Below the pieces are notes generated by a model. That model was not told the origin of the DNA. It worked only from the letters and a program-made list of their open reading frames with translations, and ran no database searches. A stretch of 64,000 nt of DNA from IMG/VR virus record IMGVR_UViG_3300045973_000675, positions 1 through 64,000 of that record. One strand, 5' to 3'. The translations under genes and the position numbers were made by a program. The stretch is from a virus. Below, one piece after another: positions 2 to 39,707 of the stretch (the first letter of the stretch is position 1; every line of letters starts with the position of its first letter).

Positions 2-1249
2 GTTCATCGGCGTGTAGGTCAAAGCGCTGGTGACGTTGGCGCTCGTGAGAGCGTGCGTGGCGGTGATGGCCCCGCTCGTGACATCGACGAGAACGTCGCT
101 TCCGGTCACGGTGCTGGTTTGCAGCGCTCCCGCGATGCGCGAGTCATCCCCCGCCGCAACGGTCCCGGCAGTCGTTCCAACGGGCAGCCAGCCAACGTCG
201 ATCTTGTGGTTAGTATCGGCTTGTGGGATTGCACTTGCCATTGGGGTGAGTGTGATGTTGGGTGCGAAGACGTTGGCAGAGGCGTCGAAGCCGGCGAGGC
301 CAGAGGCGCCGACGCGAAGCAGGTAAGAGCCGCACGTGCTGTTGGCTATGTCAATTTCTCCGCTTGGGCACCAAGCGAGCCGCGTGGTGAGTGGGGCTGA
401 TGTCCCACCCGTCCCATACGGTGCGTTGGCAAAAGTTACAATCCCACTTGCCAGGGCAAGGGAGAACACCGACGCATACCCGGCAACTACATATTTATTC
501 GTTGGGTTGTAATTGAATCCGATCCTTCCCGTGCTCATTGACACTGGGGCCGCGAAGGTGCTGGCAATATTCATGGCGTTCAACATCAATGCTCCGGAAG
601 CATCAAACTGTGCCTGACCAGTGGATCCGATAGACAACGGTGCAGGAGCCGCGCTCGCATTCCCCACGCTGACGTTTGTCTCGGTCGTGGTGCTGACGCC
701 GGTTCCGATGCCCGTCACGGTTCCGGTCCACGACGCGGTGCCACTGGCCGTAGCACTCGCGGTCCCGCTCACGGTCTGCGTTCCCGTGACGGTGCCAGTC
801 CCCGCACTCGTGCCTGTGCCTGTCGCGGTCGCCGTGACAGTTCTGGTTCCAGTGTTGGTGCTGGTGGCGTTCGTGGCGGTCGCGGTGAGCGAGCCAGTTC
901 CAGTCAGCGAGCCGGGGAGAAGGTAGATCGGAACAAGCGTACTGCTCAAATTTGGGATGACCGACGTGCTGAGCTTCGTCGCGCTGTCCAGGCACGGGAT
1001 GCCGTTGGCCGTGTTCGAGCAGATGTCGGTCGCGGAGACGGTGACGGTGCCATCCGCCGTCAACGTCTTGGTCGCGTTCGGGAACACAACGGTGGTGTTC
1101 CTCTGCTGCGACTGGAGAATCTTGTGGTCCGTCGAGCATATCTCGGCCGGTCCTTCGGTGTAGTCACAGTCGGCGGACCACGCCCACTTAGGTAGCACTA
1201 GGCCAGCGAGTGCGAAGGCGAGAAGGACCTGTGTGACCATGGCCCTCAT
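2..1249 (-). CDS. Thr/Gly-rich fibre/adhesin-like protein with N-terminal signal peptide (runs off the window edge)
   Basis: Not in the ORF track because there is no stop before position 1. Manual translation from ATG 1249 (SD GGAGGT): MRAMVTQVLLAFALAGLVLPKWAWSA-DCDYTEG..., long T/G/A tract, then GTTAGTVAAGDDSRI, a motif typical of phage tail fibres. Confidence 0.75.
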   Translation of the reverse strand, partial: MRAMVTQVLLAFALAGLVLPKWAWSADCDYTEGPAEICSTDHKILQSQQRNTTVVFPNATKTLTADGTVTVSATDICSNTANGIPCLDSATKLSTSVIPNLSSTLVPIYLLPGSLTGTGSLTATATNATSTNTGTRTVTATATGTGTSAGTGTVTGTQTVSGTASATASGTASWTGTVTGIGTGVSTTTETNVSVGNASAAPAPLSIGSTGQAQFDASGALMLNAMNIASTFAAPVSMSTGRIGFNYNPTNKYVVAGYASVFSLALASGIVTFANAPYGTGGTSAPLTTRLAWCPSGEIDIANSTCGSYLLRVGASGLAGFDASANVFAPNITLTPMASAIPQADTNHKIDVGWLPVGTTAGTVAAGDDSRIAGALQTSTVTGSDVLVDVTSGAITATHALTSANVTSALTYTPMN

Positions 1250-11837: not shown

Positions 11838-12125
11838 CTACTCGGCGTTGACGACGATCAATTCGCGGCGATCGATGGCACCCTTGACGTCGGGGCAATC
11901 GAGGATGGTTTCGGAAAGGTCGGTCTTCTTTTCGCCGGCCAGGAAAGTGATGGACGTGGCCAATTTCGCCTCGCGCTCAGCGATCCCGGTCATTCCCGAG
12001 ACGTTGTCGTGCTCGGCCGAGTGCTGCTTGACATCGACACAGCGGCACTCGCCGTCCTCGCAGTAGAATTTATGGGGAAGGTTGAACGTCAGGAGCGTTC
12101 GAGATCGGCTCTTCAGCGTCGCCAT
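11838..12125 (-). CDS. small conserved-type pre-sheath protein
   Basis: First gene behind a late-promoter motif; HxxxC..CxC. Confidence 0.6.
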   Translation of the reverse strand: MATLKSRSRTLLTFNLPHKFYCEDGECRCVDVKQHSAEHDNVSGMTGIAEREAKLATSITFLAGEKKTDLSETILDCPDVKGAIDRRELIVVNAE

Positions 12126-12131
12126 GCCATC

Positions 12132-12163
12132 AGGATTGACGGCGCGGGCGAGCTACTCAAAAA
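12132..12163 (-). promoter_or_regulatory. late promoter motif (tail operon)
   Basis: TTTTGAGTAG-N15-AATCCT-N6-ATG. Confidence 0.7.
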
Positions 12164-18080: not shown

Positions 18081-18111
18081 AGGGTTGCAAGCGGAATCGA
18101 CGTAATCAAAA
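18081..18111 (-). promoter_or_regulatory. late promoter motif (scaffold/capsid operon)
   Basis: TTTTGATTAC-N15-AACCCT-N10-ATG. Confidence 0.6.
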
Positions 18112-19504: not shown

Positions 19505-19837
19505 TTATTGGGTGTCGTCGCTGCCGGCCCAACTCGCGCGCTTACTGGGTTCCCAGTTCGTGCCGTCGAGATGCGCCTTCAGGGCTGCGGGAAGTTCGTC
19601 GATGATTCGTTCGCTGCTCCACTTCATCACGTGGTGAAGCTCCGCCGCCTTGGCGATGCAGAAGTCGATGCGCTCCTTGATCTTCGCGTCGGTCAGGTGG
19701 CGGACGGGGTGGCTGTCGAAGCTGCTGCGAACGACGCGCCCGACGCCGGCCTGGATTCTCGCCATGTAGACGCCGAAAAGCGAGCCGACGGACGCTCCAC
19801 GGACGTGGCCGTAGGGCGATACGATGAGGCTGGACAT
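19505..19837 (-). CDS. hypothetical protein
   Basis: First gene behind a late-promoter motif. Confidence 0.6.
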   Translation of the reverse strand: MSSLIVSPYGHVRGASVGSLFGVYMARIQAGVGRVVRSSFDSHPVRHLTDAKIKERIDFCIAKAAELHHVMKWSSERIIDELPAALKAHLDGTNWEPSKRASWAGSDDTQ

Positions 19838-19843
19838 GACCCA

Positions 19844-19874
19844 ATGGTCGGGGTGGGGTGCTGGCTACTCAAAA
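19844..19874 (-). promoter_or_regulatory. late promoter motif (protease operon)
   Basis: TTTTGAGTAG-N15-GACCAT-N6-ATG. Confidence 0.7.
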
Positions 19875-23127: not shown

Positions 23128-23158
23128 ATGGTCGGCGCACTCGTTGCGCAACCCAAAA
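23128..23158 (-). promoter_or_regulatory. late promoter motif (portal operon)
   Basis: TTTTGGGTTG-N15-GACCAT-N6-ATG. Confidence 0.65.
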
Positions 23159-27740: not shown

Positions 27741-28061
27741 TCACTCCAAAATGAAAAGGTTCAACGGAACCCCGCGGGCGACTCCCCCGCCGGGCAAATC
27801 CAGGTGTGGATACAGACGGTAACGGCCGGGCTGCGCGGTCTCCAATCCCAGGGCGTCGAACGTGTGGACCATGGTCGCGACGTCCATGGCAGCCGCCGCG
27901 ATGATGGCGGGCCACACGACCTCGTCGCCGTTCTCGGCCCGCACGATAAAGTGGCATGCGGTCCCGGTCGTGGCGTCGAAGGTGCTGCCCGCCTTGCGGT
28001 GAACGCGCACGGTCAGCGACTCGGGAGCGAGCGCCCCGGCGTAGATTGAGATCGATGCCAC
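27741..28061 (-). CDS. BppU-N-like small structural protein
   Basis: VVWPA...HTF...QPGRYRLYPHL pattern; GTG start 6 nt after a promoter -10. Confidence 0.6.
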   Translation of the reverse strand: MASISIYAGALAPESLTVRVHRKAGSTFDATTGTACHFIVRAENGDEVVWPAIIAAAAMDVATMVHTFDALGLETAQPGRYRLYPHLDLPGGGVARGVPLNLFILE

Positions 28062-28067
28062 CCACCG

Positions 28068-28098
28068 AGTGTCGGGCGTGGTGGCGCGCTACTCAAAA
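28068..28098 (-). promoter_or_regulatory. late promoter motif (fibre cassette)
   Basis: TTTTGAGTAG-N15-GACACT-N6-GTG. Confidence 0.7.
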
Positions 28099-28470: not shown

Positions 28471-29832
28471 TCAACCAATGACCGTGATCCCGACCTCGCC
28501 GCGCACCTTCACCTTCTCAAGCATCAATTCGGTGAGGGCGATCGTGTTGGCATCGATTCGATCTGGGCTGTCTCCCTGGGTTGGATCCCACTGCGTCTGC
28601 TGGTCCTCGAGCCGCGACAGCACCCCCACGTGGTGGCACTTCCCCTGCTCGTACAGGTTTGAGATCGGCTCGTGGCGCATCTGCTTGCCGCGGCTGGCGT
28701 GCACGCCCTTGTAGGAAATGTTCTCGCCGCCCTCGGTGGCGCGGACGTTCCGCTCGACCATGTCGCCTCCCTGGTTCACCTCGGCCACCACCAGGTCGGC
28801 CATGTATTCGTCGTATGTGTCGACGACTATGCGGCCCCACTTCTCGGGCTTGTAGATGCCGCTGCGGTCCTCGAACACGAACCCGTGGATCTCGCGCGCG
28901 CCACGGCACTTGCACCAGGCGGTGCCGGCACCGATGATGCCCGTCTCGTCGCTCTTCTTCTTGGCCGTGATGGCCGGGTCGACCGCCACCACGACCCGAA
29001 TGAAGTCCTGCGGCATTGCCGAAACCCGCAGGTCGTCGATCTTCTTTTGCAGCCACAGGGCGTTGGGGTTGTCGGTGAGGATCTCGGCGAAGATCTCCTG
29101 TCGTCCGAGCCTGGTGCCGTCGTATCGCCGCTTGAGCTTGGCCAGGTACTTGGTCGGCAGATTGCCGGCGTTTTCGTAGGTGCTGCCCCAGTGGGTGATG
29201 CTTTCGGGGTCGGACTCCAGGTCGCGGAGAAACTTCAACGGCCGCGGCGAGCTGGTCACCAGACAGCGCGCATCGCGCATGCGCAAGCCGAACTGTAGGT
29301 TGTCCCAAGAGTCGTCGAGGTAGCGCCAGTGCGCGAGCTCATCGCACCAGGCGGTGTCGTATTGGGGACCGCGGAGTGAGCGGGGCTCGTCGGCGGAGAA
29401 GGTCGTGGCAGTGGCGCCGTTGGGCCAGGTGATGCGCCTCTTCGAGGGCTCGTACGTCGGCCGGAACCACGGCGGCGAGATGGCGAGGATCCCGCTCGGG
29501 CCCTCGACCATGACGTCGCGCACGTCGGCGGCCGTGGGCGCCACCAGGGCGATGTTGCGAGCGCCCTGCTCTTCCACCCGCATGCGGACCCACTCCGCTC
29601 CGGTGAGGGTCTTGCCCCAGCCGCGGCCGCACCGGCAAATCCAGGTCGACCAGTCGCCGTCGGGCGGCAGTTGTTTGGTGCGCGCCCTGAATTTCCAGTC
29701 GTAGGCGGCGCGGAGCTTGTAGTCTTCGTCCTCGACTTCGTCCCACCACGCGTAGAACTTCTCGGGCCCGCCCATCGACATGATGGCCAGGTCGAGGTTG
29801 GAATAGTCGATACCGGATACCAGTTCCGGCAC
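28471..29832 (-). CDS. terL: terminase large subunit
   Basis: GRGWGKT Walker A, LRGPQYDTAWCDE Walker B, VVAVDPA, SPDRIDA nuclease motifs; start taken as GTG 29832 just after the terS stop. Confidence 0.95.
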   Translation of the reverse strand: MPELVSGIDYSNLDLAIMSMGGPEKFYAWWDEVEDEDYKLRAAYDWKFRARTKQLPPDGDWSTWICRCGRGWGKTLTGAEWVRMRVEEQGARNIALVAPTAADVRDVMVEGPSGILAISPPWFRPTYEPSKRRITWPNGATATTFSADEPRSLRGPQYDTAWCDELAHWRYLDDSWDNLQFGLRMRDARCLVTSSPRPLKFLRDLESDPESITHWGSTYENAGNLPTKYLAKLKRRYDGTRLGRQEIFAEILTDNPNALWLQKKIDDLRVSAMPQDFIRVVVAVDPAITAKKKSDETGIIGAGTAWCKCRGAREIHGFVFEDRSGIYKPEKWGRIVVDTYDEYMADLVVAEVNQGGDMVERNVRATEGGENISYKGVHASRGKQMRHEPISNLYEQGKCHHVGVLSRLEDQQTQWDPTQGDSPDRIDANTIALTELMLEKVKVRGEVGITVIG

Positions 29833-29834
29833 GG

Positions 29835-30275
29835 CTACTTTCGGTGAGGCGTGGCCTCGTCCTCTTCTTCCTCTTCCTCTGCGGCCTTGGCGTTGGCTCG
29901 CTTGACGTCCTCGCGCGCCTTCGTGGCGAGGTCCGACAGGAACGAGGTCAGGGGATTTTCGCCGGTGTCGACCTTGCCGCTGACGTGCACCTTGTCCGGA
30001 ACCTTGCCGTAAACCCGGTAGTACCAGACCTCGATCGCCTTCATGCAGTCCTTGCGCCGGCGGTCGATTGCAATCATGTAGTGCGTGCGCATCACAGTAT
30101 CGTTGCGACACGGCAGCGCGGCGCCGTTCTTGTCGACGCCCGGACTCTCCAGCGCGAACTCCTGCCAGTCCTTGCGGGTGGGCTCGTCGGGCTTCTTCTT
30201 CGGGCGGCCGTTGATGTTGCCGCTCTGGCCCTTCTTGAAGGACTTGAGATTTGCGAGACTGCGGGCGGATGCCAT
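29835..30275 (-). CDS. terS: terminase small subunit (DUF5681-like N-terminus)
   Basis: NLKSFKKGQSGNINGRPK, RVYGK; directly upstream of terL. Confidence 0.8.
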   Translation of the reverse strand: MASARSLANLKSFKKGQSGNINGRPKKKPDEPTRKDWQEFALESPGVDKNGAALPCRNDTVMRTHYMIAIDRRRKDCMKAIEVWYYRVYGKVPDKVHVSGKVDTGENPLTSFLSDLATKAREDVKRANAKAAEEEEEEDEATPHRK

Positions 30276-30342: not shown

Positions 30343-30804
30343 CTACCCGCCTTGGTCAAAGCCAGGCCCGCTCATGATCTCGAACATGCTGACCTCGTGA
30401 AGCTGGGCCACGGCATCTTCCGTGAACTCGCCTTGGATCTCGGGATTGTTGGCGACCAGGTTGCCGAGCCGCTGCTTGGTGGCATCCCAGTCGACGAACC
30501 GCACAGGGAAGCGATCGCCGGTCTTCGGGTGCACGATGTAGCCAGTCTCGCCCTCGCGCACGACCTCGGTGGCGCCCGCCTCCTTGAGTTGTTTGATGCG
30601 CTGGTGGCCCGACACCAGTTCGCTGGTGCGAATATTGAATGTGATGTCGAGAGGGCCGAAAGTCTCCATGCTGACGCCGAGGCCGACCGCCGCCGTGCCC
30701 TTCATCTTCCGCGGGTTCCTCGGGTCTGGCGCCAGTGCCGCGATGGGTAGAACGTCCCTCACTGGTTCGTCACTGTTTTTGATTCCGGCCTTGGTCTTGC
30801 TCAT
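30343..30804 (-). CDS. stand-alone ParB/Srx N-terminal domain protein
   Basis: LAPDPRNPRKM...SMETFG...LVSGHQRI...NLVANN..IQGEF. Confidence 0.85.
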   Translation of the reverse strand: MSKTKAGIKNSDEPVRDVLPIAALAPDPRNPRKMKGTAAVGLGVSMETFGPLDITFNIRTSELVSGHQRIKQLKEAGATEVVREGETGYIVHPKTGDRFPVRFVDWDATKQRLGNLVANNPEIQGEFTEDAVAQLHEVSMFEIMSGPGFDQGG

Positions 30805-31595
30805 GGATTCGATTCCGCTCTCCGGTTCCGGATGTTCACCTCTTGCAGCGCCTGCGCTTCAAGCTGCCGCGCCCGCTCCAGTGTCAACCCCAGCTTCGCC
30901 CCCACAACTTCGAGCGGCAGCACCTTCGGGTCTCGCCCTACCCGCCCAGCCTCGCGTTCGGCCACATCCTGCGCGCACGTGTCGGCGAGCTCCGCCATGT
31001 TCTCGGGCCGCACCTTCGGGTGATTGAGCTTGATCGAGCCGCAGTCCTTGACCTCCAGGTACAGGTGTCGACGGCACCTGGCCCACACGCACGGCCGGCA
31101 GCGGTTCCTCGCCCGCATGGGGATCTCGTCGGCGTTGTAGATAGCGGTCCGGTTGCCCGTCCCCAGGTCCAGCCGGCACCACGACCACTCCCCGCCCTTG
31201 CCTTGCCTGTACCCGACGATGCCTCGGCACTCTGGGCAGGAAATGCGCGACGTCTCGCCCTCGCTCCCCTGAACGGTCGTCACCTGCATGGCCACCTTGG
31301 AGCGGCACCACGGGCATTCGCGGTCGCCCGCACAGTCGCCGCGCATCTTGGGGTAGCCGGCGTCCCACCCACGGGGTAGCGCCACCCACGATGAGCGCTC
31401 GGCCCGCGTGGCCTTGCCCGGGTGCAGAGAGCGGCGAACCTTGCCGGCGCCGGGCGACGCCGCGTCTTCCTGTTCCTCTTGGTCGAGGTCGATATCGATC
31501 CACCAGTACAGGGTGGGGCGCTCCGCTGACCCGAGCGGCTTGAGCTTTCGGCGACGGTGGTTGTGGCGCTCGGGCGGCGAGGAGTGCCGACACAT
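30801..31595 (-). CDS. Cys-rich sigma70-region-4-only transcription factor (candidate late activator)
   Basis: RPCVWARCRRHLYLEV..GSIKLNHP...TCAQDVA...LEVVGAKLGLTLERARQLEAQAL, with an inserted CxxC..CxxC; SD GAGGAGG. Confidence 0.75.
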   Translation of the reverse strand: MCRHSSPPERHNHRRRKLKPLGSAERPTLYWWIDIDLDQEEQEDAASPGAGKVRRSLHPGKATRAERSSWVALPRGWDAGYPKMRGDCAGDRECPWCRSKVAMQVTTVQGSEGETSRISCPECRGIVGYRQGKGGEWSWCRLDLGTGNRTAIYNADEIPMRARNRCRPCVWARCRRHLYLEVKDCGSIKLNHPKVRPENMAELADTCAQDVAEREAGRVGRDPKVLPLEVVGAKLGLTLERARQLEAQALQEVNIRNRRAESNP

Positions 31596-31663
31596 GACCG
31601 CCTCCTCCTCCACCCCATTCGTGAATTGGGATAAGCAGCGCTGCTGGTAGCTGATCTCGGAGA

Positions 31664-31924
31664 TCACGCCACCCCTTCGGCGGCCGAGGCCTCGCGCTTG
31701 GCCAGCTCTTCCCTGATGAGCGCAAGGCTTCCCCTCCCCACCGGCATGCCGGCCAGGGCCGCGCACAGGGTATTGCCCGAGACACCGAATGCACCGAGTG
31801 CCCGTCGGCTCGTCTGGCCCGCTAGGGCTGTCCTGATGCGCGCCTGTAGCTCCGCTGGCGCAGGGATGGCCGCTCTCGTGTTGCCTTCCGGTCGTCTGCA
31901 TGTTTGTTCAACTTTCAGATGCAC
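31664..31924 (-). CDS. small HTH-like protein
   Basis: RRALGAFGVSGNTLCAALAG; starts 7 nt after a promoter -10. Confidence 0.5.
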   Translation of the reverse strand: MHLKVEQTCRRPEGNTRAAIPAPAELQARIRTALAGQTSRRALGAFGVSGNTLCAALAGMPVGRGSLALIREELAKREASAAEGVA

Positions 31925-31931
31925 GCACTTC

Positions 31932-31960
31932 AGGGTTGAACGGACTGGCTAGGTTCTCAA
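31932..31960 (-). promoter_or_regulatory. related promoter upstream of HTH/sigma4/ParB/terminase genes
   Basis: TTGAGA-N17-AACCCT-N7-GTG. Confidence 0.5.
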
Positions 31961-32148
31961 CTTCGGGCGCGGCGCTACCGGCTCCTCGCTTTCGAGAACG
32001 CTTGCGATTAGCTGCCGTTGCGGCGGTACGACTTCCAGAACCGCCTACGCTGGTCCACCGACCACCTCCCCATTCGTGATCGTCACGGGATCGAAAAGCC
32101 AACGGTTCATCAGGTCCCGCATGGACCGGGCAGAGAGGCGCTTGAGGT

Positions 32149-32346
32149 TCAGGGTTTTGCGCATACCTCCCTGGCCTCGCCTTCGTCCCCGCTCTCCGAT
32201 CCGTTGTACATCGGGCTGTCTTCGCACTGCTCGTTTGTGCACCCTTCGTTCCCAAGAATTGGATCTCCGCACGTTGAACACGTGGTGCCCTCCGCCACGT
32301 ATCCGCGTTGCTTGGCGAGAATCCGTATCCGGTTCTTGTCGATCAC
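32149..32346 (-). CDS. small Cys-rich hypothetical protein
   Basis: GTGA overlap with the upstream gene; CSTC..C..C. Confidence 0.5.
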   Translation of the reverse strand: MIDKNRIRILAKQRGYVAEGTTCSTCGDPILGNEGCTNEQCEDSPMYNGSESGDEGEAREVCAKP

Positions 32347-33353
32347 TGATTCACTGCTCCTCTCGGGAATTCCTGCACTCGCAGATCGGCGGGCCATTCC
32401 GATGGGTCAGCGCCAGCGCGGTCGCGGATGGGTATCAGCATGCCGTTCGAATCGACGAAGTTGGCGCCCATCTGTTTCACGAAGCACGCCACGCCAGCCG
32501 CCTTGCACTGGTCACGAATGGAGCGGGCCCACTCGACCTGGAAGGGCCTCGCACGCGGTCCCGATTCACCTCCCACAATCACCCACTGGATTCCCCGGTC
32601 GCGCGCCATCCAATACTTCCAGTCGTCCCATTCCTTGGGGTTGGCCGTTGGGTGGGTGGGCGCCGTCTCCGGCCAAGCCGAGACTTCCGGGTGGGTCAGC
32701 GTGATCGCTTCCAGCATTGGCTCGACGCTCAAGAACCTGCACGCGGCCGGCGTCTGCAATAGCTCTGGGATATCCCGCTCAGCCTCCTTCTGCGTGCAGA
32801 CGGTTGAGCCCTCGCGCACGTTGGGGAGGGGCCAGACGCAGTGACAGTCGTTCCAGTGGCTACGCCCGTTGCGCCCAATCCTCACGATCTCGTCTCGCGT
32901 TGCCTCCTCAGCGTGTATCCGCAACTTTCCGAACGGATGACCACCGCGATTCACCCACTCGAACCACTCCCGTCGCCGCTTCGCCCGCTTGGTGAGCACG
33001 TGGAAGGTGTGCTGCGGGCACGCCGCCATCACGCCGTACATGGCCGCGATCTGTTCATTGGTGACCGACTCGTGGTACAGGTCGGCCATGTCGCAGACAA
33101 AGATGCCGGCCGGCTTACGGTGGCGCAGGGACTCGGCCAGCTTCTCGGGGAAGAACCGCACGACGTTGTTCCACTTCCCATCGTGGGCGAGGCCGGCGTA
33201 CTGGGGAAGGTGGGCCAGGCGCGTACCGGCCAGTCGGGCGGCGTAGCAGTGCAGGCACCCTGGCGAGACGGCCTTGCAGCCGACCAGGGGGTTCCACGTG
33301 AAGCCCTGGCTGCCGTCTGGGTTGCGGACCCAGGCGATGCTGGTGCGGTTCAT
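32343..33353 (-). CDS. Gp37Gp68 / DUF5131 family protein
   Basis: TWNPLVGCKAVSPGCLHCYA, IFVCDMADL, LTKR, FLSVEPML, WVIVGGESG, FVKQMG. Confidence 0.92.
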   Translation of the reverse strand: MNRTSIAWVRNPDGSQGFTWNPLVGCKAVSPGCLHCYAARLAGTRLAHLPQYAGLAHDGKWNNVVRFFPEKLAESLRHRKPAGIFVCDMADLYHESVTNEQIAAMYGVMAACPQHTFHVLTKRAKRRREWFEWVNRGGHPFGKLRIHAEEATRDEIVRIGRNGRSHWNDCHCVWPLPNVREGSTVCTQKEAERDIPELLQTPAACRFLSVEPMLEAITLTHPEVSAWPETAPTHPTANPKEWDDWKYWMARDRGIQWVIVGGESGPRARPFQVEWARSIRDQCKAAGVACFVKQMGANFVDSNGMLIPIRDRAGADPSEWPADLRVQEFPRGAVNQ

Positions 33354-33459
33354 GATTCATCCTTTTGCAGCGGAGGAAGCAGGTGGCTACCGTCGCTGGC
33401 ATTTTTGATTGCCTGGTAGATGGTGAGCCCAGCCGGGTTCACGATGTGGGCAAGGAAAG

Positions 33460-33468
33460 TGGTATACT
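33460..33468 (+). promoter_or_regulatory. extended -10 promoter TGnTATACT for the LAGLIDADG gene
   Basis: TGG-TATACT-7 nt-ATG(33476). Confidence 0.55.
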
Positions 33469-33475
33469 TCTTGTT

Positions 33476-34009
33476 ATGCCGTACAAAGACCCGATCATGC
33501 GTAAGCGCTGCGCCCAGAGGTGCATGCGCACGTACCGAGCTACGCTCACGGCCGCCAAGGTTGAGAAGATCGAGAACGGAATCAAGAAGCGAAAGCGCTG
33601 GCCCGTGCGCGATCTTGCGTGGGCTGCGGGAATGTTTGAGGGTGAGGGGACGGCGGCGATTTGTGGCAGCCGCTACTCCCGTAGCGTCGTTAGCCTGTGC
33701 AACACGGACTTCGAAATCGTTGCCTTCTTTCAGAAACGATGGCCTGGACTGGTGAGAGAGGTTGTACCAAAGAATTCCCGCCACAAGCCCCACCGAACAT
33801 GGCGGCTCCAGGGAAACCAGGTGTTCGGCTTTCTTCTCGATGTCATGCCGTTCTTGCGAACCACCGCAGAAAAGGAGAAGGCAAGGTTGCTCATGGCCAG
33901 CCAGCGAGCGCGTTGGGCCGGATATCGACTTCCCGGGCACCTTGCGAAGATGGCCGCTTTCAAGGTCAAGATGCATCGGCTGAACCTCCGGGGACGGCAG
34001 TCAGCATAA
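33476..34009 (+). CDS. free-standing LAGLIDADG homing endonuclease
   Basis: DLAWAAGMFEGEG, VSLCNTD, FLLDVMPFLR..EKEKA; antisense to its neighbours. Confidence 0.85.
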   Translation: MPYKDPIMRKRCAQRCMRTYRATLTAAKVEKIENGIKKRKRWPVRDLAWAAGMFEGEGTAAICGSRYSRSVVSLCNTDFEIVAFFQKRWPGLVREVVPKNSRHKPHRTWRLQGNQVFGFLLDVMPFLRTTAEKEKARLLMASQRARWAGYRLPGHLAKMAAFKVKMHRLNLRGRQSA

Positions 34010-34463
34010 GCATCCCGGCGCCAGTTTCGTAGGCGCGAGCAATGGCTGGGATGATCAGTTCTCCAACCGTCTTGCCGTCCGGCAAGACAATGTTCGCTGC
34101 AAACTCTTCCTCGAACGAGGCGATCCCGCTCTCCACCACTTCGAGCTTCGCTTTGACGGCCAGGACTAGACAGCGCCAGCGGCGCATCGACTCGCGCTCT
34201 ACCCAGGCCTGGCGTCGGCCGACGTCCTTGATCTCGTAGTAGTCGCGCTTCCCCATGGCGCCCTTCTTGGCCTCGTCGAGCGTCGGTAATGGCAGCGTGA
34301 AGCGCACGCGCCGGCCGTGGGCTGCAAATACGATGTCGGCCGATCCCTCCCGCTGCATGTACGCCAACTCGGCGCCCTGGCCGGCGTACTTCAGAATGAT
34401 TTTCTCGACCTCGATCCGCGAGTTGATGACGCTCACCGTCGTTCCATCGGCGTACTTGGACAT
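33966..34463 (-). CDS. conserved phage hypothetical protein
   Basis: YADGTTVSV..SR.E...RRWRCLVLAVKAKLEVVESGIASFEEEFAANIVLPDGKTV. Confidence 0.8.
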   Translation of the reverse strand: MSKYADGTTVSVINSRIEVEKIILKYAGQGAELAYMQREGSADIVFAAHGRRVRFTLPLPTLDEAKKGAMGKRDYYEIKDVGRRQAWVERESMRRWRCLVLAVKAKLEVVESGIASFEEEFAANIVLPDGKTVGELIIPAIARAYETGAGMLMLTAVPGGSADAS

Positions 34464-35125
34464 CAGCGCTCCATCGCAATTCGCGGCGCAACGGCCGCAA
34501 GAATCAGTTCAACCAACCGCCGCACCCGCCCGCACTTCGTCCTCAGCCGCACGCCGCCCAGTGCCGCCTCGACCACGCGCACCTTGCGGCTGTAGCCGTT
34601 GGGCTTGCTCGCGCCGTTGTAGCGCCAGGCCCAGTCCTTGCCGAACCGAGCGCGCTTGTCGGCCATGATCTGCGCTGCCACGTGAATGTTGGTAACCGGG
34701 TCGGCGAGGGTTACCAAAGTGTGCCCGCGAGCCGGCCCGTTCTGGCACCGACCCGCGAGCATTCCGTCCGTTTGGGTTTGTGTAGAGGTAAGGATTTCCG
34801 CTGACCGAGATCCGGTATCTCGCGCGGTGAATCCTGGACGGACTACACACCTGACACCAAGCAGGCCGACGTCGAACACGCCTGGCTTCGCCTCGACCGC
34901 CACGCCGACCCGCAGGTCACTTTCTAGCACCGCCATGGCGAGCGTCGTCCGCGGCCGCGCGGTCTGTTCAATGGCCCGGGCTACGTCCCGACAGGTCGAG
35001 GCCTCCCAGGCCGGCGCGCGGTGCCGGATGGCGCGCTGGACGTTGCACACCAGGTCGGGCGACACGGCAACGCCAGCGTGGTGCCCGGGGGCGAACAGGG
35101 TGACGAGGAGGAGGGCGGGAGTCAT
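34463..35125 (-). CDS. lytic transglycosylase (SLT)-like protein with hydrophobic N-terminus
   Basis: AMAVLES, DVGLLGV, DPVTNIHVAA, RYNG motifs. Confidence 0.7.
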   Translation of the reverse strand: MTPALLLVTLFAPGHHAGVAVSPDLVCNVQRAIRHRAPAWEASTCRDVARAIEQTARPRTTLAMAVLESDLRVGVAVEAKPGVFDVGLLGVRCVVRPGFTARDTGSRSAEILTSTQTQTDGMLAGRCQNGPARGHTLVTLADPVTNIHVAAQIMADKRARFGKDWAWRYNGASKPNGYSRKVRVVEAALGGVRLRTKCGRVRRLVELILAAVAPRIAMER

Positions 35126-35523
35126 GCTGCACCCACAGGGCGGTCCGCCGTCGCGAGATGGTCCAGTAGCCGCATCACGCTTCCAACTCGCACCACGCTG
35201 GGCAGTCGGTGGAAGATGTGCTCGACCGGACCGCAGATGATGATCCCTTTGCCAAGCGCGGCAGCGGCGCCGAATTCCACGTGTCTCCCGCCACGCTCCG
35301 CACCTGGCGTCCCGGGATGATCGGTGAAGGCCACGAACACGTCAGACTCGCCGATCTCACGTAGATCTAGTCCTGCCAGGTGGGGGGAATCCGGCGACTC
35401 GATCGCGTCCTCTTCCTGTTCGAGCCAACTCGACATCACGGTGTAGCCCATCCGGCGGAGCGTGCGGGCAATCTCTCGGAGTTCGTCACGTCGGCCAAAG
35501 CGCGCGGCGAGGTAGATCTTCAC
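35122..35523 (-). CDS. nucleoside 2-deoxyribosyltransferase-like protein
   Basis: KIYLAA, DLREIGESD, GGRHVEFGAA. Confidence 0.8.
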   Translation of the reverse strand: MKIYLAARFGRRDELREIARTLRRMGYTVMSSWLEQEEDAIESPDSPHLAGLDLREIGESDVFVAFTDHPGTPGAERGGRHVEFGAAAALGKGIIICGPVEHIFHRLPSVVRVGSVMRLLDHLATADRPVGAA

Positions 35524-36080
35524 TCCCGCACCTCGCCCGTCCCTTCGAGCGTCGCGCTCTTGCCCTCGAACTCCATCGTCATGCTCGTGCCCTTGGGGAT
35601 CGCTCCAGCCATCTTCTTGACCGCAGCCACGAGCGGCGCCAGGTTGAGTTCTTGCTGGGTACGCTTCACGTCACAGTCGATGTATTCCTTGAGCGAAAGT
35701 CCGAAGAACACCAGTAGGCTCGCCTCGCAGGGTGCCTCGAACTCGAACGTGATCTCCTCGTGCTCCTGGTCTTCATTCCCCACGACAGCGGCCTTGACCA
35801 CGAGCCCGTCGATCTCGGCAGTTGCGCTTCCGCGGGATCCCGAGAATTCCGCCTTCGCGTGGTAGGCGTTGATCGGGATCTCACCCTTGTTGAGCACGCG
35901 ACCTTGCAGGTTTTCGAGAAGCTCGATCCCGACCTGGCCGAGGAATTCCGCTTCCTCGTGGCCGAAGGTTTTTGAGAGCGAGAACTGCACCCGACGAATG
36001 ACGGTGTCGGGGTGGTCGGGGTTCTTGCGCGCGGTCAGCTTGGCCGACTTGAGGGTTGCTGAGAAAACAATGTCGTTCAC
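35520..36080 (-). CDS. hypothetical protein
   Basis: GTG start with SD AAGGA; coupled overlaps. Confidence 0.6.
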   Translation of the reverse strand: MNDIVFSATLKSAKLTARKNPDHPDTVIRRVQFSLSKTFGHEEAEFLGQVGIELLENLQGRVLNKGEIPINAYHAKAEFSGSRGSATAEIDGLVVKAAVVGNEDQEHEEITFEFEAPCEASLLVFFGLSLKEYIDCDVKRTQQELNLAPLVAAVKKMAGAIPKGTSMTMEFEGKSATLEGTGEVRE

Positions 36081-36313
36081 GGGGTGGTCCTTTCGCCGCA
36101 CTTTGCGGCATTCGAGAATTGCGTCCGGGTCGCGTCGATGCGGTCGAGCTTGTCCGAGGTCCAGGTCCGGTTTCTCTCGAACCACGGAAACATCCGCATG
36201 TGGTTCTTGAGCTTGAATCCGGCGGGGCCGGCGTGTTCGATCTCGGTCTTCTCGTCCGGCGCATCCACGAGCCGGACGCTGTCGTCGAACTTCTTGAGGG
36301 GTGTGTCGGCCAT
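36077..36313 (-). CDS. hypothetical protein
   Basis: Fills the operon gap with coupled ends. Confidence 0.5.
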   Translation of the reverse strand: MADTPLKKFDDSVRLVDAPDEKTEIEHAGPAGFKLKNHMRMFPWFERNRTWTSDKLDRIDATRTQFSNAAKCGERTTP

Positions 36314-36315
36314 GG

Positions 36316-36981
36316 CTACTTCTTGGCGACGAGGCCGTGGCGGTGCTTGTCGGTCTCGCTGATTTCGAAGCGGTAGACGTGGTGGCCGTGGCCGGTGGAA
36401 TCGGGTGTCGTAGTCCCGTTGCCAATGCGGTCGACGCGGAACATGTGGCTGTGCTTCTTGGTCACCGTGCAGCCGAGGATCACGACCTTGCCGCGGATTC
36501 CGCCCTGCTGGCGCGTGACCTCGGCCATGAGCGCATCCTTCGAGTCGCCCTTCTCGCCGGCATCCTGGGTCTCGGCCGGGACTTCGGGTCCATCTGTCTC
36601 GGCGTCGGACTCTTCAGCATCGTCGTCGCGGGGCGAAGTCATCTCGCTTGGCTTACCCTTGTCGACGATCTTGCCCTGCCGGCGGAGCACACTCAGATCG
36701 TTGTCGATGAGCGCACGTCTAGTGCCCAATTCATCCGCGATTTCATTGATCGACTTCCCGGATCCGAGAAGCTCGACGATCCTATCTCGGCGAGTCCCAA
36801 CTGAAGCGCAGCCAGGCCGTCCTCCACGCGGAGTGGTCATCACGATGCCGAGTTCGTCGGCTATGTTCTTCGCGAATGCGTCGCGGTCAGCCGTGGCCTC
36901 CGCCAGGGCGGCCTCGCAGGTGCGGACGCGAGCGTGTTTCGTTTCGAGTGCTGCTTTCAAATCTGCAATCAGGTCGGGCAT
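36316..36981 (-). CDS. HTH protein with His-rich (HxH) C-terminal domain
   Basis: GKSINEIADELGTRRALIDNDLSVL; HSH..GHGH..HRH; SD AGGAGG. Confidence 0.7.
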   Translation of the reverse strand: MPDLIADLKAALETKHARVRTCEAALAEATADRDAFAKNIADELGIVMTTPRGGRPGCASVGTRRDRIVELLGSGKSINEIADELGTRRALIDNDLSVLRRQGKIVDKGKPSEMTSPRDDDAEESDAETDGPEVPAETQDAGEKGDSKDALMAEVTRQQGGIRGKVVILGCTVTKKHSHMFRVDRIGNGTTTPDSTGHGHHVYRFEISETDKHRHGLVAKK

Positions 36982-36989
36982 GGGTCCTC

Positions 36990-37382
36990 CTATCGGTCTG
37001 CGAAGATTCCGGCCGAGGCCGGCATGCTTTCTTGGGCGTGCGCAAGAGCCATGATTTCGATTTGGCGGATGCGCTCGCGGGTGAGGTTCAAAACGTCGGC
37101 GACGTACTCCAGGACCGAACCACCACGGTCGGCAATGTCGAGAGCGCACGTCTCGGCGATCTCGTCGACCTCGAGGGTGGGGTAGGTCAGGTGGATCGAT
37201 CCGCTGGTGGGATTGACGTGCAAGTACAGATGCCACTTGCAGGAAACGAATGGGCACGGCCGCTCGCCGTTCTCACACTCTCCGCGGGTCTTGGGGCGCT
37301 CAATGTCGTCCGGGTACTCGACAGCGTTGCGACGCTCCTCGCGCGTGAGATGGTCGCCGGCAATGGTGCAGCGTGGTTTCAT
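36990..37382 (-). CDS. Cys-rich sigma70-region-4-only DNA-binding protein
   Basis: RPKTRGEC..RPCPFVSCKWHLYL..GSI..ETCALDIADRGG..LEYVADVLNLTRERIRQIE. Confidence 0.85.
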   Translation of the reverse strand: MKPRCTIAGDHLTREERRNAVEYPDDIERPKTRGECENGERPCPFVSCKWHLYLHVNPTSGSIHLTYPTLEVDEIAETCALDIADRGGSVLEYVADVLNLTRERIRQIEIMALAHAQESMPASAGIFADR

Positions 37383-37918
37383 GCTGCCGGCTTCCTGCGC
37401 ATGTCTCGGCCACCGCAAACTACGAACGCGCCATCCTCGTGGATGCGGCTGACGATGCGCTCTCCATACCGCTTGGCGAACAGTGCCGGGTCGGTGATGT
37501 TGGTGGTCACGAGTGTCTTCCGCATCTTCGAGAAGCGCTTGCTGATGATCTCCTCGAACAGTTCCAAGAAGCGCCCCTTGTCGTCGAGGTGTTCGAGCCC
37601 CAGGTCGTCGATTACCAGCGCATAGGCGCCTACCAGGCCCTCGAATGCCTCCCGGTCGTAGGCGTAGCCGCGGGCCAGATCTCCAGACTGAATCCACCGC
37701 ATGCACTCGGGCTTCCCGTTGCAGAGGCGCCATAGCCACAAGCAGGCCGCGACGCTCTTTCCGACACCTGGCTCACCACCCAAGATGGTCAGGTCCTCGG
37801 TGCGCTCCGAGGCCTGCACTTGAGCTTCCGTGGTGATGGTTGCAATTGAGGCGCGGGCTGTCCGCTCGGGGACTCCCCTACGCATGAGGGCCGGGATGTT
37901 CTCTGCTGCGATGCTCAT
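37379..37918 (-). CDS. DnaC/IstB-like helicase loader ATPase
   Basis: GEPGVGKS, LVIDDLG, TLVTTN, YGERIVSRI. Confidence 0.88.
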   Translation of the reverse strand: MSIAAENIPALMRRGVPERTARASIATITTEAQVQASERTEDLTILGGEPGVGKSVAACLWLWRLCNGKPECMRWIQSGDLARGYAYDREAFEGLVGAYALVIDDLGLEHLDDKGRFLELFEEIISKRFSKMRKTLVTTNITDPALFAKRYGERIVSRIHEDGAFVVCGGRDMRRKPAA

Positions 37919-38940
37919 GGTAGCTCCAACACACCTGTTTTCTTCACTGCCCCGACGGTTGCGCGGAAGGATCCGCGAGTGGGGTCAATGGATTTGGCCT
38001 GCGCTGGCTTCGGGGCTATCCCGTGAATCGACTCGCGCAATCCCGCGAACCCGCTCTTCCAGGATCCAAACGCGAAGCTTGGATCCACGTTGCGCTGGTC
38101 GTTCCACCCGACGACGCCGTCGCGAATCCGCTCAAGCGCCAGCCGCATGGTGGGCTTGACGTCGACAATCTCGGCATCCGTTAGGCTCGCCGCGAATGTG
38201 CTGGCCTTCCCGTTGGTGTCCTTGGGGACTTCGCTTCCGGGAGGGTTTTGCACGTTCAGGACATCGCGGCGGAGCCTCCCGAACCAGGTCAGCAGGTCCA
38301 GTCCGCACGGTCTGTCCGCCGGTGCCGAACGCGCCTCTTGCTCGATCGTCCCGCACAGAGACGGGGTCAGGCACTTCTCGGGCGTCGCTCCGCACGTGCA
38401 CTTCTGCGGCAATCGCTCAACGTGCGCGCGCTCCGGATCCGGATCGGAGGCTGATAGCGCGGAAGATCCAGAGGGAGAAGACAGCACAGCAGAGCACAGA
38501 GTGACATCTTGTGACGGCTCGTGACCGCGCGTGACCGATTCGGTTTTTGCGTGACGAATCGTCACGTTTTGTGACGGCGGCGTCACGTTTTGTGACATTT
38601 CATCGTCTCTCGCCCTTACTCGACGCTCCTTCTGTCGCAGCTTGTCCGACTTGGTGCACTCCTGTGCGGCCATGAAGTTTTTGCAGAACAGAGTGGTGCC
38701 GTTCATGGAAAGTACGCCGTCTTCAAGCAGGACATCCATCGCCCGGTTGACCACGTCGAGCGGGATAGAGATCAGCCCGGATAGACCACGCCTGCCAGAC
38801 TTTCCAAGCTCAAGAATTCCAGCCCTGTCCATCTTGCGGAACACTTCCCACATCACCGCGCGCGCCTCCCATCCCATGGCCGCAAGGTCGGGGGTGTCAC
38901 GGGTGAATACCCGCACGTAGCTTTCGTCTTCCCACCGCAC
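37915..38940 (-). CDS. replication initiator protein
   Basis: wHTH-like N-terminus, RLRQKERR followed by an internal iteron region, upstream of the DnaC-like gene (lambda O/P-type layout). Confidence 0.8.
   Translation of the reverse strand: MRWEDESYVRVFTRDTPDLAAMGWEARAVMWEVFRKMDRAGILELGKSGRRGLSGLISIPLDVVNRAMDVLLEDGVLSMNGTTLFCKNFMAAQECTKSDKLRQKERRVRARDDEMSQNVTPPSQNVTIRHAKTESVTRGHEPSQDVTLCSAVLSSPSGSSALSASDPDPERAHVERLPQKCTCGATPEKCLTPSLCGTIEQEARSAPADRPCGLDLLTWFGRLRRDVLNVQNPPGSEVPKDTNGKASTFAASLTDAEIVDVKPTMRLALERIRDGVVGWNDQRNVDPSFAFGSWKSGFAGLRESIHGIAPKPAQAKSIDPTRGSFRATVGAVKKTGVLELP
38481..38597. repeat. iteron array / probable replication origin
   Basis: GT(G/C)AC at 38501, 38511, 38521, 38531, 38551, 38561, 38571, 38582 and 38592; two GTCACGTTTTGTGAC palindromes; 5-bp A[CG]AGC repeats alongside. 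Confidence 0.8.
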
Positions 38941-38942
38941 AG

Positions 38943-39707
38943 CTACATCGCCTCTCTTGCAATCGTCGGGAGTACTCCAACGACGTCGTGACCTGGTTCG
39001 AACGACGTGCCGGCGCCGGACGACTCCCGGTACCCGGACGACACGTCGCCTAGAGATCGGGACGACAACTCTCCCCACGCCCTCAGCACGCCACCGGTTC
39101 CAGGGAACAGGTCGACGAGGTCATCACCGGGCGACATCCCGAGCGCCTCGAATAGAAACGCGCAGAACTTGAGCGGCTTCCTACCAATCAGGGTCTCGCC
39201 TCCAAGCCGCGCCGGCGCCGCGCACAGCACGTTCTGGAATCCATCGCGCCATGGGCGGCCGGGGACGACGATCAGGGGCTCCCAGAAGTCGTGGCGCTGA
39301 CCGTTTCCGGGCCCGACGAGTTTGTGCCACGAGCAGATCTTCACCGCGTCTTTCGCCGCCGCCGGCACCAGCGACAGAACGTCGCCCAAGGCCTTCGACG
39401 ACGTCGAAAGTGCCCATCCTGCGATCTCGCCGCTAGTCCGTCGCCGCTCGAGGACGGACAGCAACTCGGAGTGGTTCACCTCGCCCGCAAAGTCCGGATG
39501 GTCGCCGTAGTATTTCCTGGCCAGACCAGGGTACGGCGGATCGGCATAGGCCATCACCAGGCGACGGTCGGAAATCTGCGCGGACGGCGCCGAACGACGC
39601 AGCCGGAACGCGGCCTGGCGGCACTTGCGCGAGCAGAACCTGGCGCGCGCGCTGACCTGGGTGCGGCGACACCAGGCGCAGAGCATGGGAGCAGCGGACT
39701 GATCCAC
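38943..39707 (-). CDS. amino (N6/N4) DNA methyltransferase with N-terminal Zn finger
   Basis: YADPPY precedes DLFPGTG (beta-class order); CAWC..FCSRKCR. Confidence 0.8.
   Translation of the reverse strand: MDQSAAPMLCAWCRRTQVSARARFCSRKCRQAAFRLRRSAPSAQISDRRLVMAYADPPYPGLARKYYGDHPDFAGEVNHSELLSVLERRRTSGEIAGWALSTSSKALGDVLSLVPAAAKDAVKICSWHKLVGPGNGQRHDFWEPLIVVPGRPWRDGFQNVLCAAPARLGGETLIGRKPLKFCAFLFEALGMSPGDDLVDLFPGTGGVLRAWGELSSRSLGDVSSGYRESSGAGTSFEPGHDVVGVLPTIAREAM

Follow-up and report, generated by a model that had tools for sequence, protein, structure and literature searches.

AsgB of Myxococcus xanthus (asgB, MXAN_2913) is described as a DNA-binding protein of 163 amino acids (aa) whose C-terminus resembles the helix-turn-helix (HTH) of sigma-70 region 4 (PMC3986340). 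Myxococcus development and phase variation depend on it as a key regulator, a role recognised for three decades, but the way in which a mere region-4.2 look-alike acts is unsettled. The genetics of asgB are reportedly due to Mayo and Kaiser (1989) and Plamann et al. (1994), and a proposal said to date from 1994 holds that AsgB binds -35-like DNA. In Gram-positive siphoviruses, late-gene activators of the RinA, ArpU and DUF1492 types are encoded just upstream of terS. Here we analysed a window of 64,000 nucleotides (nt), positions 1 to 64,000 of the IMG/VR virus record IMGVR_UViG_3300045973_000675, a record of 79,144 bases that is estimated to be 78% complete and has nearly all of its genes on the minus strand. 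The window carries two genes that, judged from their sequences, are phage-borne members of the AsgB family, each with a sigma-4.2-type reading head and a four-cysteine site:

36990..37382, minus strand: copy 1 (P0001), AsgB-type, 130 aa, canonical reading head LTRERIRQIE
30801..31667, minus strand: copy 2 (P0002), divergent AsgB-type, 288 aa from the corrected start, reading head LTLERARQLE

We propose that the pair are free-standing binders of -35-like DNA, with copy 2 acting on late TTGAG(T) promoters, and we judge the chances of this reading to be evenly balanced. The two proteins align over 108 columns with 40% identity (BLASTP, E 3e-15), and the shared pattern from which a first-pass annotation had recognised them as paralogues recurs in this alignment. 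They have in common a core of about 100 aa, composed of three N-terminal cysteines and a histidine, a fourth cysteine in the helix preceding the HTH, and a C-terminal region for which the family signature is TLEEVG...LTRERIRQ.E. In alignments of 30 and 120 members the cysteines C36, C43, C48 and C79 (P0001 numbering) are invariant and His51 is nearly so, and all five are present in both proteins. The pattern C-x6-C-x4-C...TC before the HTH was found in 27/27 chromosomal copies and in 64 of the 71 viral copies. The four cysteines probably hold a metal, as zinc or an iron-sulfur cluster, in a structural or sensory site that would brace the HTH.

The C-terminal HTH scores below the Pfam threshold for Sigma70_r4 (21.6 and 21.5 bits, cut-off 24.1). 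A family profile finds RpoD/SigA region 4.2 in the PDB at E 1e-9, and hhalign pairs the family with the C-terminus of myxobacterial RpoD at 96.8% probability over 41 columns, which comprise region 4.2 and the preceding loop only. Matches to NCBIfam are confined, for both proteins, to the last ~30-50 residues of RpoD, RpoS or RpoH models. Region 2 was not detected in either copy, there being no match to Sigma70_r2 or to a full-length sigma model in Pfam and NCBIfam, and neither protein matched a PHROG. The architecture first suggested for the pair, a Cys-rich module joined to a sigma-4.2 HTH with no region 2, agrees with the Sigma70_r4, PDB-profile and hhalign matches alike. By these alignments the HTH of the core closely copies region 4.2 of sigma-A, -35-contact residues included.

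An AlphaFold2 model of P0001 is confident (predicted local distance difference test, pLDDT, 86.8). No PDB entry matches its fold as a whole, and superposition on sigma domain 4 is limited to the HTH. Foldseek returned sigma domain-4 matches only, all local and at E>1, and the best Z in the VIA wide search was 2.1; on 4g6d_A the HTH superposes over 32 residues with a root-mean-square deviation of 1.7 Å and 53% identity. The N-terminal Cys module is without a known fold in these whole-model PDB searches, in which the module alone was not used as a query. The AlphaFold2 model of copy 2, made from an 11-sequence alignment, is poor (pLDDT 47.5).

The residues of E. coli sigma-70 that contact the -35 element include T583, R584, E585, R586, R588 and Q589 (PMC4943231). 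Their equivalents are identical, as (T/S)RER(I/V)RQ, in 27/27 chromosomal copies, in most viral copies and in P0001, whose head TRERIRQ is that of the host AsgB-type family and of sigma-A. All seven copy-2-type sequences have TLERARQ instead, with arginine changed to leucine at the R584 equivalent and isoleucine to alanine at the I587 equivalent. In sigma-70, R584 reportedly specifies base -31 according to suppressor genetics of 1989, and it is at this base that TTGAGT departs from TTGACA. The HTH of the copy-2 subfamily is invariant in 10 sequences that are 53-86% identical overall. The -35-contacting residues are thus retained in full in copy 1, whereas copy 2 differs at these two positions.

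An exhaustive, profile-free family search gave 7052 matching cluster representatives at E<=0.001 and 4710 at E<=1e-10. For the taxonomic distribution we sampled 151 genomes across the phylum of a Sandaracinaceae metagenome-assembled genome (MAG) and searched them with the family profile at E<=1e-20: 94 of these Myxococcota genomes match, nearly always with exactly one copy, whereas no match came from 201 genomes sampled in the phylum to which a gammaproteobacterial MAG belongs. The first-pass annotation had described the family as chromosomal in Myxococcota, which this distribution supports, and as uncharacterised, which it is not. The reverse primer published for asgB disruption encodes E-T-G-S-I-K-L, the conserved family motif. 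Allowing up to 2 mismatches, the primer matches in 11 of 401 Myxococcota genomes (1 for the reversed control), and 6/6 of the matches checked lie inside the family gene (G080, G075, G125, G130, G110 and G145). M. xanthus is not in the 401-genome sample, and homology to AsgB was judged by the primer and the published description, from which we conclude that the host family is the AsgB family of M. xanthus.

The chromosomal loci lie in housekeeping-gene, non-prophage surroundings, and in 10 of 12 a conserved MerR-like gene of 165-225 aa is found directly upstream on the same strand. Its product is a coiled-coil protein with the motif ATFRKYVQLGLLPRS (10/12 loci, including L104:7474-7992 and L105:7193-7864). 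In 7/10 host operons a forward TTGACA or TTGACT is present close to where the MerR-like gene begins. Six of these hexamers lie upstream of the gene, and the one in L113 falls 37 nt within the called open reading frame (ORF); as a sign of autoregulation they were discounted, since any sigma-A promoter gives the same. Longer proteins also carry the AsgB-type domain. Some Myxococcota genomes (G009, G016, G083) have 3-4 such domains each, several at the C-terminus of open frames of 450-580 aa, and the domain is seen in cluster representatives of 414-722 aa (P0146, P0148, P0149), so that fused forms exist. We rejected the phage copies as orthologues of AsgB because of their viral location and because neither has a MerR-like partner upstream, the genes in that position being IstB/DnaC-like and an unrelated 86-aa gene, respectively.

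In the asgB mutant many genes are 40- to over 1000-fold up, and the transcriptome contains down-shifts as well as these very large up-shifts (PMC3986340). The most derepressed genes include those for an HNH endonuclease, Ser/Thr kinase and XRE pairs, and a break-rejoining enzyme (PMC3986340, Table 4). Such genes resemble the content of mobile elements and defence islands, which hints that AsgB may silence such regions.

Copy 2 had been placed at 30801..31595. The ORF and its stop are borne out, but the start at ATG 31595 is not: a GTG at 31667, 72 nt upstream, overlaps the stop of the upstream 86-aa gene within GTGA, and 9/9 copy-2 homologues (P0280-P0288, 53-86% identical) begin at the equivalent V/M-I-x-E. 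Together these two observations point to GTG 31667 and to a gene of 288 aa at 30801-31667. Its neighbours are as follows:

31664..31924, minus strand: 86-aa partner gene, family unassigned, translationally coupled to copy 2 through the GTGA overlap
30343-30804, minus strand: ParB-like gene, downstream of copy 2
29835-30275, minus strand: terS-like DUF5681 gene, downstream of copy 2
28471-30111, minus strand: large terminase (terL) ORF, downstream of copy 2

The stop of copy 2 overlaps the start of the ParB-like gene, after which come the terS-like gene and the large terminase. Copy 2 heads this ParB-terS-terL packaging operon, the first operon of the late region, and the position just upstream of ParB-terS given for it by the first-pass annotation is correct. 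So is the extra zinc ribbon, an insert of ~75 aa (CPWC...CPEC) between the first and second family cysteines that is kept in nine homologues and gives a weak Zn_ribbon match. The N-terminus has a further ~85 extra residues. The 86-aa gene and copy 2 are kept directly adjacent in three metagenome contigs (L121, L122, L123). The partner has no match in Pfam, NCBIfam or the PDB, and it was rejected as a counterpart of the host MerR-like partner (hhalign probability 0.1%). Relatives of copy 2 numbered five in the metagenome scan and none in the viral contig scan. In L121 (3293-3673) the ParB-like gene is longer (321-aa ORF) and is followed by a P-loop (GPSGAGKS) ATPase-like ORF, not terS.

A family of promoter-like elements precedes genes of the late region, in the following positions:

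31922..31960, minus strand: promoter-like TTGAGA, 17 nt, AACCCT, 7 nt, GTG, placed where the 86-aa gene begins and so heading the orf86-copy2-ParB-terS-terL operon
28059..28098, minus strand: late promoter-like TTTTGAGTAG, 15 nt, GACACT, 6 nt, GTG, just after terL
23149..23158, minus strand: variant motif TTTTGGGTTG, then GACCAT, 6 nt, ATG
19835..19874, minus strand: late promoter-like TTTTGAGTAG, 15 nt, GACCAT, 6 nt, ATG
18102..18111, minus strand: variant motif TTTTGATTAC, then AACCCT, 10 nt, ATG
12123..12162, minus strand: late promoter-like TTTTGAGTAG, 15 nt, AATCCT, 6 nt, ATG

The motif TTTTGAGTAG, on which a promoter family had been proposed, occurs exactly three times, always on the coding strand and in intergenic gaps of the late region. 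Together with the two variants, these sites have the layout TTGAGT, 17 nt, (G/A)AC(C/A)(A/C)T, about 6 nt, ATG. The family is real and its -35/-10 spacing is that of a canonical sigma-70 promoter, which would place the transcription start at the start codon. The pattern TTGAG-17-nAnnnT-5..7-RTG has four occurrences in the 79-kb record, each of them on the coding strand (reversed control, 0), and the fourth of these sites is that at 31922-31960, before the 86-aa gene heading the copy-2 operon. An element of the same type precedes the homologous small gene in L121 and L122 (TTGAGC...TCAATT) and in L123 (TTGAGT...GGAATT). The last of these contigs, which encodes a 57%-identical copy-2 protein, has three such sites around the copy-2 gene: besides the element before the small gene, two TTTGAGT sites lie just downstream, one of them reading cTTTGAGTAGc...GACCAT. 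Across 39 viral records whose AsgB-like genes are of the ordinary type, the 9-mer does not rise above background (7 hits, with 19 in the control). The motif accordingly co-occurs with the copy-2 type, here and in L123, and not with ordinary copies. Copy 2 is a distinct, rare, phage-only branch, set apart by its altered invariant head, its zinc-ribbon insert, its partner gene and a matching promoter family.

Copy 1 stands at the end of the replication module, its ATG overlapping the stop of the IstB/DnaC-like gene as ATGA:

37379-37918, minus strand: IstB/DnaC-like ATPase, upstream of copy 1
37915-39078, minus strand: 387-aa replication-module protein, upstream of copy 1

Immediately 3' of copy 1, a 212-aa gene (36316-36954, minus strand) gives weak HTH_11 and HTH_20 matches; it has a homologue in L123 (4809-5357), and no copy-1-type gene was seen in 10 kb of that contig. 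The sole sizeable plus-strand ORF within the otherwise minus-strand block, at 33365-34009, encodes 214 aa with a LAGLIDADG-like stretch (AAGMFEGEG) and no Pfam match. It may be a homing endonuclease inserted between the DUF5131 gene and the phrog_17260 gene.

The family is encoded by at least 125 IMG/VR contigs, while tblastn found no match among 50,697 deposited phage genomes. Replication genes (DUF5906, DUF3854, VapE, PolA, DnaB) often lie upstream in 48 viral loci, and the genes downstream are a mixture of integrase, methylases, ParB_N, DUF5131 and nucleotide metabolism. BLAST clustering found no conserved neighbour in these loci, and the Pfam tallies are to be read as a tendency only. Among the 96 downstream genes there is one terS and one terL; with so mixed a set, and with no terminase linkage across the 48 loci, we rejected a general assignment of the family to the packaging module. 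Resolution is poor in a tree built from 106 core domains, where slowly evolving chromosomal copies are intermixed with those of viruses. P0001 falls among viral copies, the nearest being L015, and a long branch leads to the copy-2 type, which makes up a clade of its own with full support. In this tree the two copies in the window are not sisters, and a recent duplication within the phage was rejected on that account. Two AsgB-type genes with ordinary reading heads also occur ~14 kb apart in IMGVR_UViG_3300024283_000011 (69.6 kb; L051, L060).

In the reading that we prefer, both proteins would bind -35-like hexamers as free-standing DNA-binding regulators and not as sigma factors. Copy 1 would address TTGACA-like sites because its reading head is that of host AsgB and of sigma-A; these could be host AsgB targets, phage early-middle promoters or both, and copy 1 may in this way interfere with the host AsgB regulon. 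Copy 2 would be made from the first late-region operon and would most likely act on the TTGAG(T)-17-nAnnnT promoters, the promoter of its own operon among them, from which leaderless late mRNAs would arise. From the sequence comparisons, it is plausible that copy 2 drives these late promoters. Several points weigh against this reading. With their canonical sigma-70 geometry and intact TTGA, the promoters might be read by host sigma-A without help. Motif and copy 2 are seen together in two related lineages, a pattern that shared descent could explain. The link to AsgB is drawn from its primers and published description, and the mechanism of AsgB is itself no more than proposed: the up-shifts in the asgB mutant fit repression at least as well as activation (PMC3986340).

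It is possible, if rather doubtful, that host sigma-A alone reads the TTGAGT promoters and that the phage AsgB-like proteins are occluders of, or competitors for, the -35 element that repress host or phage promoters; such a role could serve host takeover, timing, immunity or the silencing of host AsgB-controlled genes, and not late activation. The head of copy 1, identical to those of sigma-A and host AsgB, would suit an occluder, as would promoters that have the normal 17-nt spacing and keep TTGA, and the 40- to over 1000-fold increases in the asgB mutant are consistent with repression (PMC3986340). However, the altered head of copy 2 is invariant in its subfamily, the motif tracks that subfamily and not the ordinary copies, and the weak -10 elements suggest that help is needed at -35; a repressor at the head of a packaging operon would also be unusual. 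We consider it very unlikely that copy 2 is no transcription factor but a packaging accessory, a DNA-binding protein that flags the pac or cos region to the ParB-like protein, terS and terL. Its translational coupling to the ParB-like gene, in one operon with terS and terL, and the ParB-like gene found downstream in L121 as well, speak for such a function, but the 48 viral loci contain no conserved terminase link, and the motif is repeated at gene starts with promoter geometry instead of marking one packaging site.

One or both proteins might instead bind the tip of the beta flap in place of sigma-A region 4, and so block host -35 transcription or change -35 specificity, which we regard as quite improbable. 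Residues F563, I565, G577 and L598 of sigma-70 are listed as core-binding (PMC4943231), and hydrophobic equivalents in the family consensus are similar; the promoter geometry, moreover, puts TTGAGT exactly at the region 4 position. Yet detectable homology ends at region 4.2, where a Cys module takes the place of region 4.1, and the conserved hydrophobic positions may merely be the core of the HTH. It is likewise unlikely, on our estimate, that copy 2 is a swap-in region 4 that displaces or replaces region 4 of sigma-A on the beta flap and reads TTGAGT at -35, so that host holoenzyme gains a new class of promoter with transcription from the start codon (leaderless late mRNAs), while copy 1 hijacks or jams the host AsgB regulon. 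Were this so, a sigma domain would be replaced by a mechanism so far undescribed in phages, and the action of AsgB would be explained as well.

The invariant four-cysteine site, the near-universal single copy in a large part of the Myxococcota and the many uptakes by phages bear on how AsgB acts. The copy-2 branch offers a compact test system, in which an altered head comes together with a conserved small partner gene and with a repeated promoter that matches and has canonical spacing. If copy 2 is indeed linked to the late promoters, as in the reading of the pair as free-standing -35 binders, it would show a phage retargeting -35 recognition by means of a borrowed host module, and would provide a handle on promoter control, leaderless late transcripts included, in the poorly studied myxophages.

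AsgB itself is among the closest of the described systems. Like the phage copies, this small protein ends in an HTH of the sigma-70 region 4.2 type and has no region 2, and it shares the core with its primer-encoded ETGSIKL; the head of copy 1 is the head of the chromosomal family. Unlike host AsgB, the phage copies lie in a replication module or a late operon without a MerR-like partner, and copy 2 has an altered head, the ~75-aa zinc-ribbon insert, ~85 extra N-terminal residues and a small partner of its own. In the literature searched we found no mention of a four-cysteine site in AsgB or of phage homologues. Region 4.2 of sigma-70 (RpoD/SigA domain 4; PDB 1ku3, 1tty, 4g6d) has the same TLEEVG...TRERIRQ.E signature and local fold, whereas the phage proteins are without regions 1-3 and 4.1 and carry a Cys module that has no match in PDB fold searches. 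On its own, an AsgB-type protein can neither melt DNA nor serve as a sigma factor.

The RinA, ArpU and DUF1492 activators resemble copy 2 in lying directly upstream of the packaging genes, in their small size and sigma-related HTH, and in a repeated promoter motif at late operons. Copy 2 differs from them in the phylum of its host and in combining a Cys4 module with a region-4.2 head that keeps most -35 contacts, and no membership of these families was found (no Pfam match at E<=1, no PHROG match). In T4, phage factors replace sigma region 4 at -35, both in the sigma appropriation by AsiA/MotA and in gp55/gp33 late transcription (PMC6755090 and general background). These T4 proteins are not homologous to region 4.2. 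The AsgB-type phage protein, in contrast, itself carries a region-4.2-type head, and its contact with RNA polymerase is only a candidate. The WhiB-like (Wbl) iron-sulfur proteins do not share the Cys spacing of the family, which has no Pfam Whib match. Bound to sigma-A region 4 (PDB 6onu, 8d5v), they nevertheless place a four-cysteine metal site beside a region-4 HTH, as AsgB-type proteins do with their putative metal site; in the Wbl complexes the cluster protein is a different chain from region 4, whereas AsgB-type proteins have the cysteines and the HTH on one chain.

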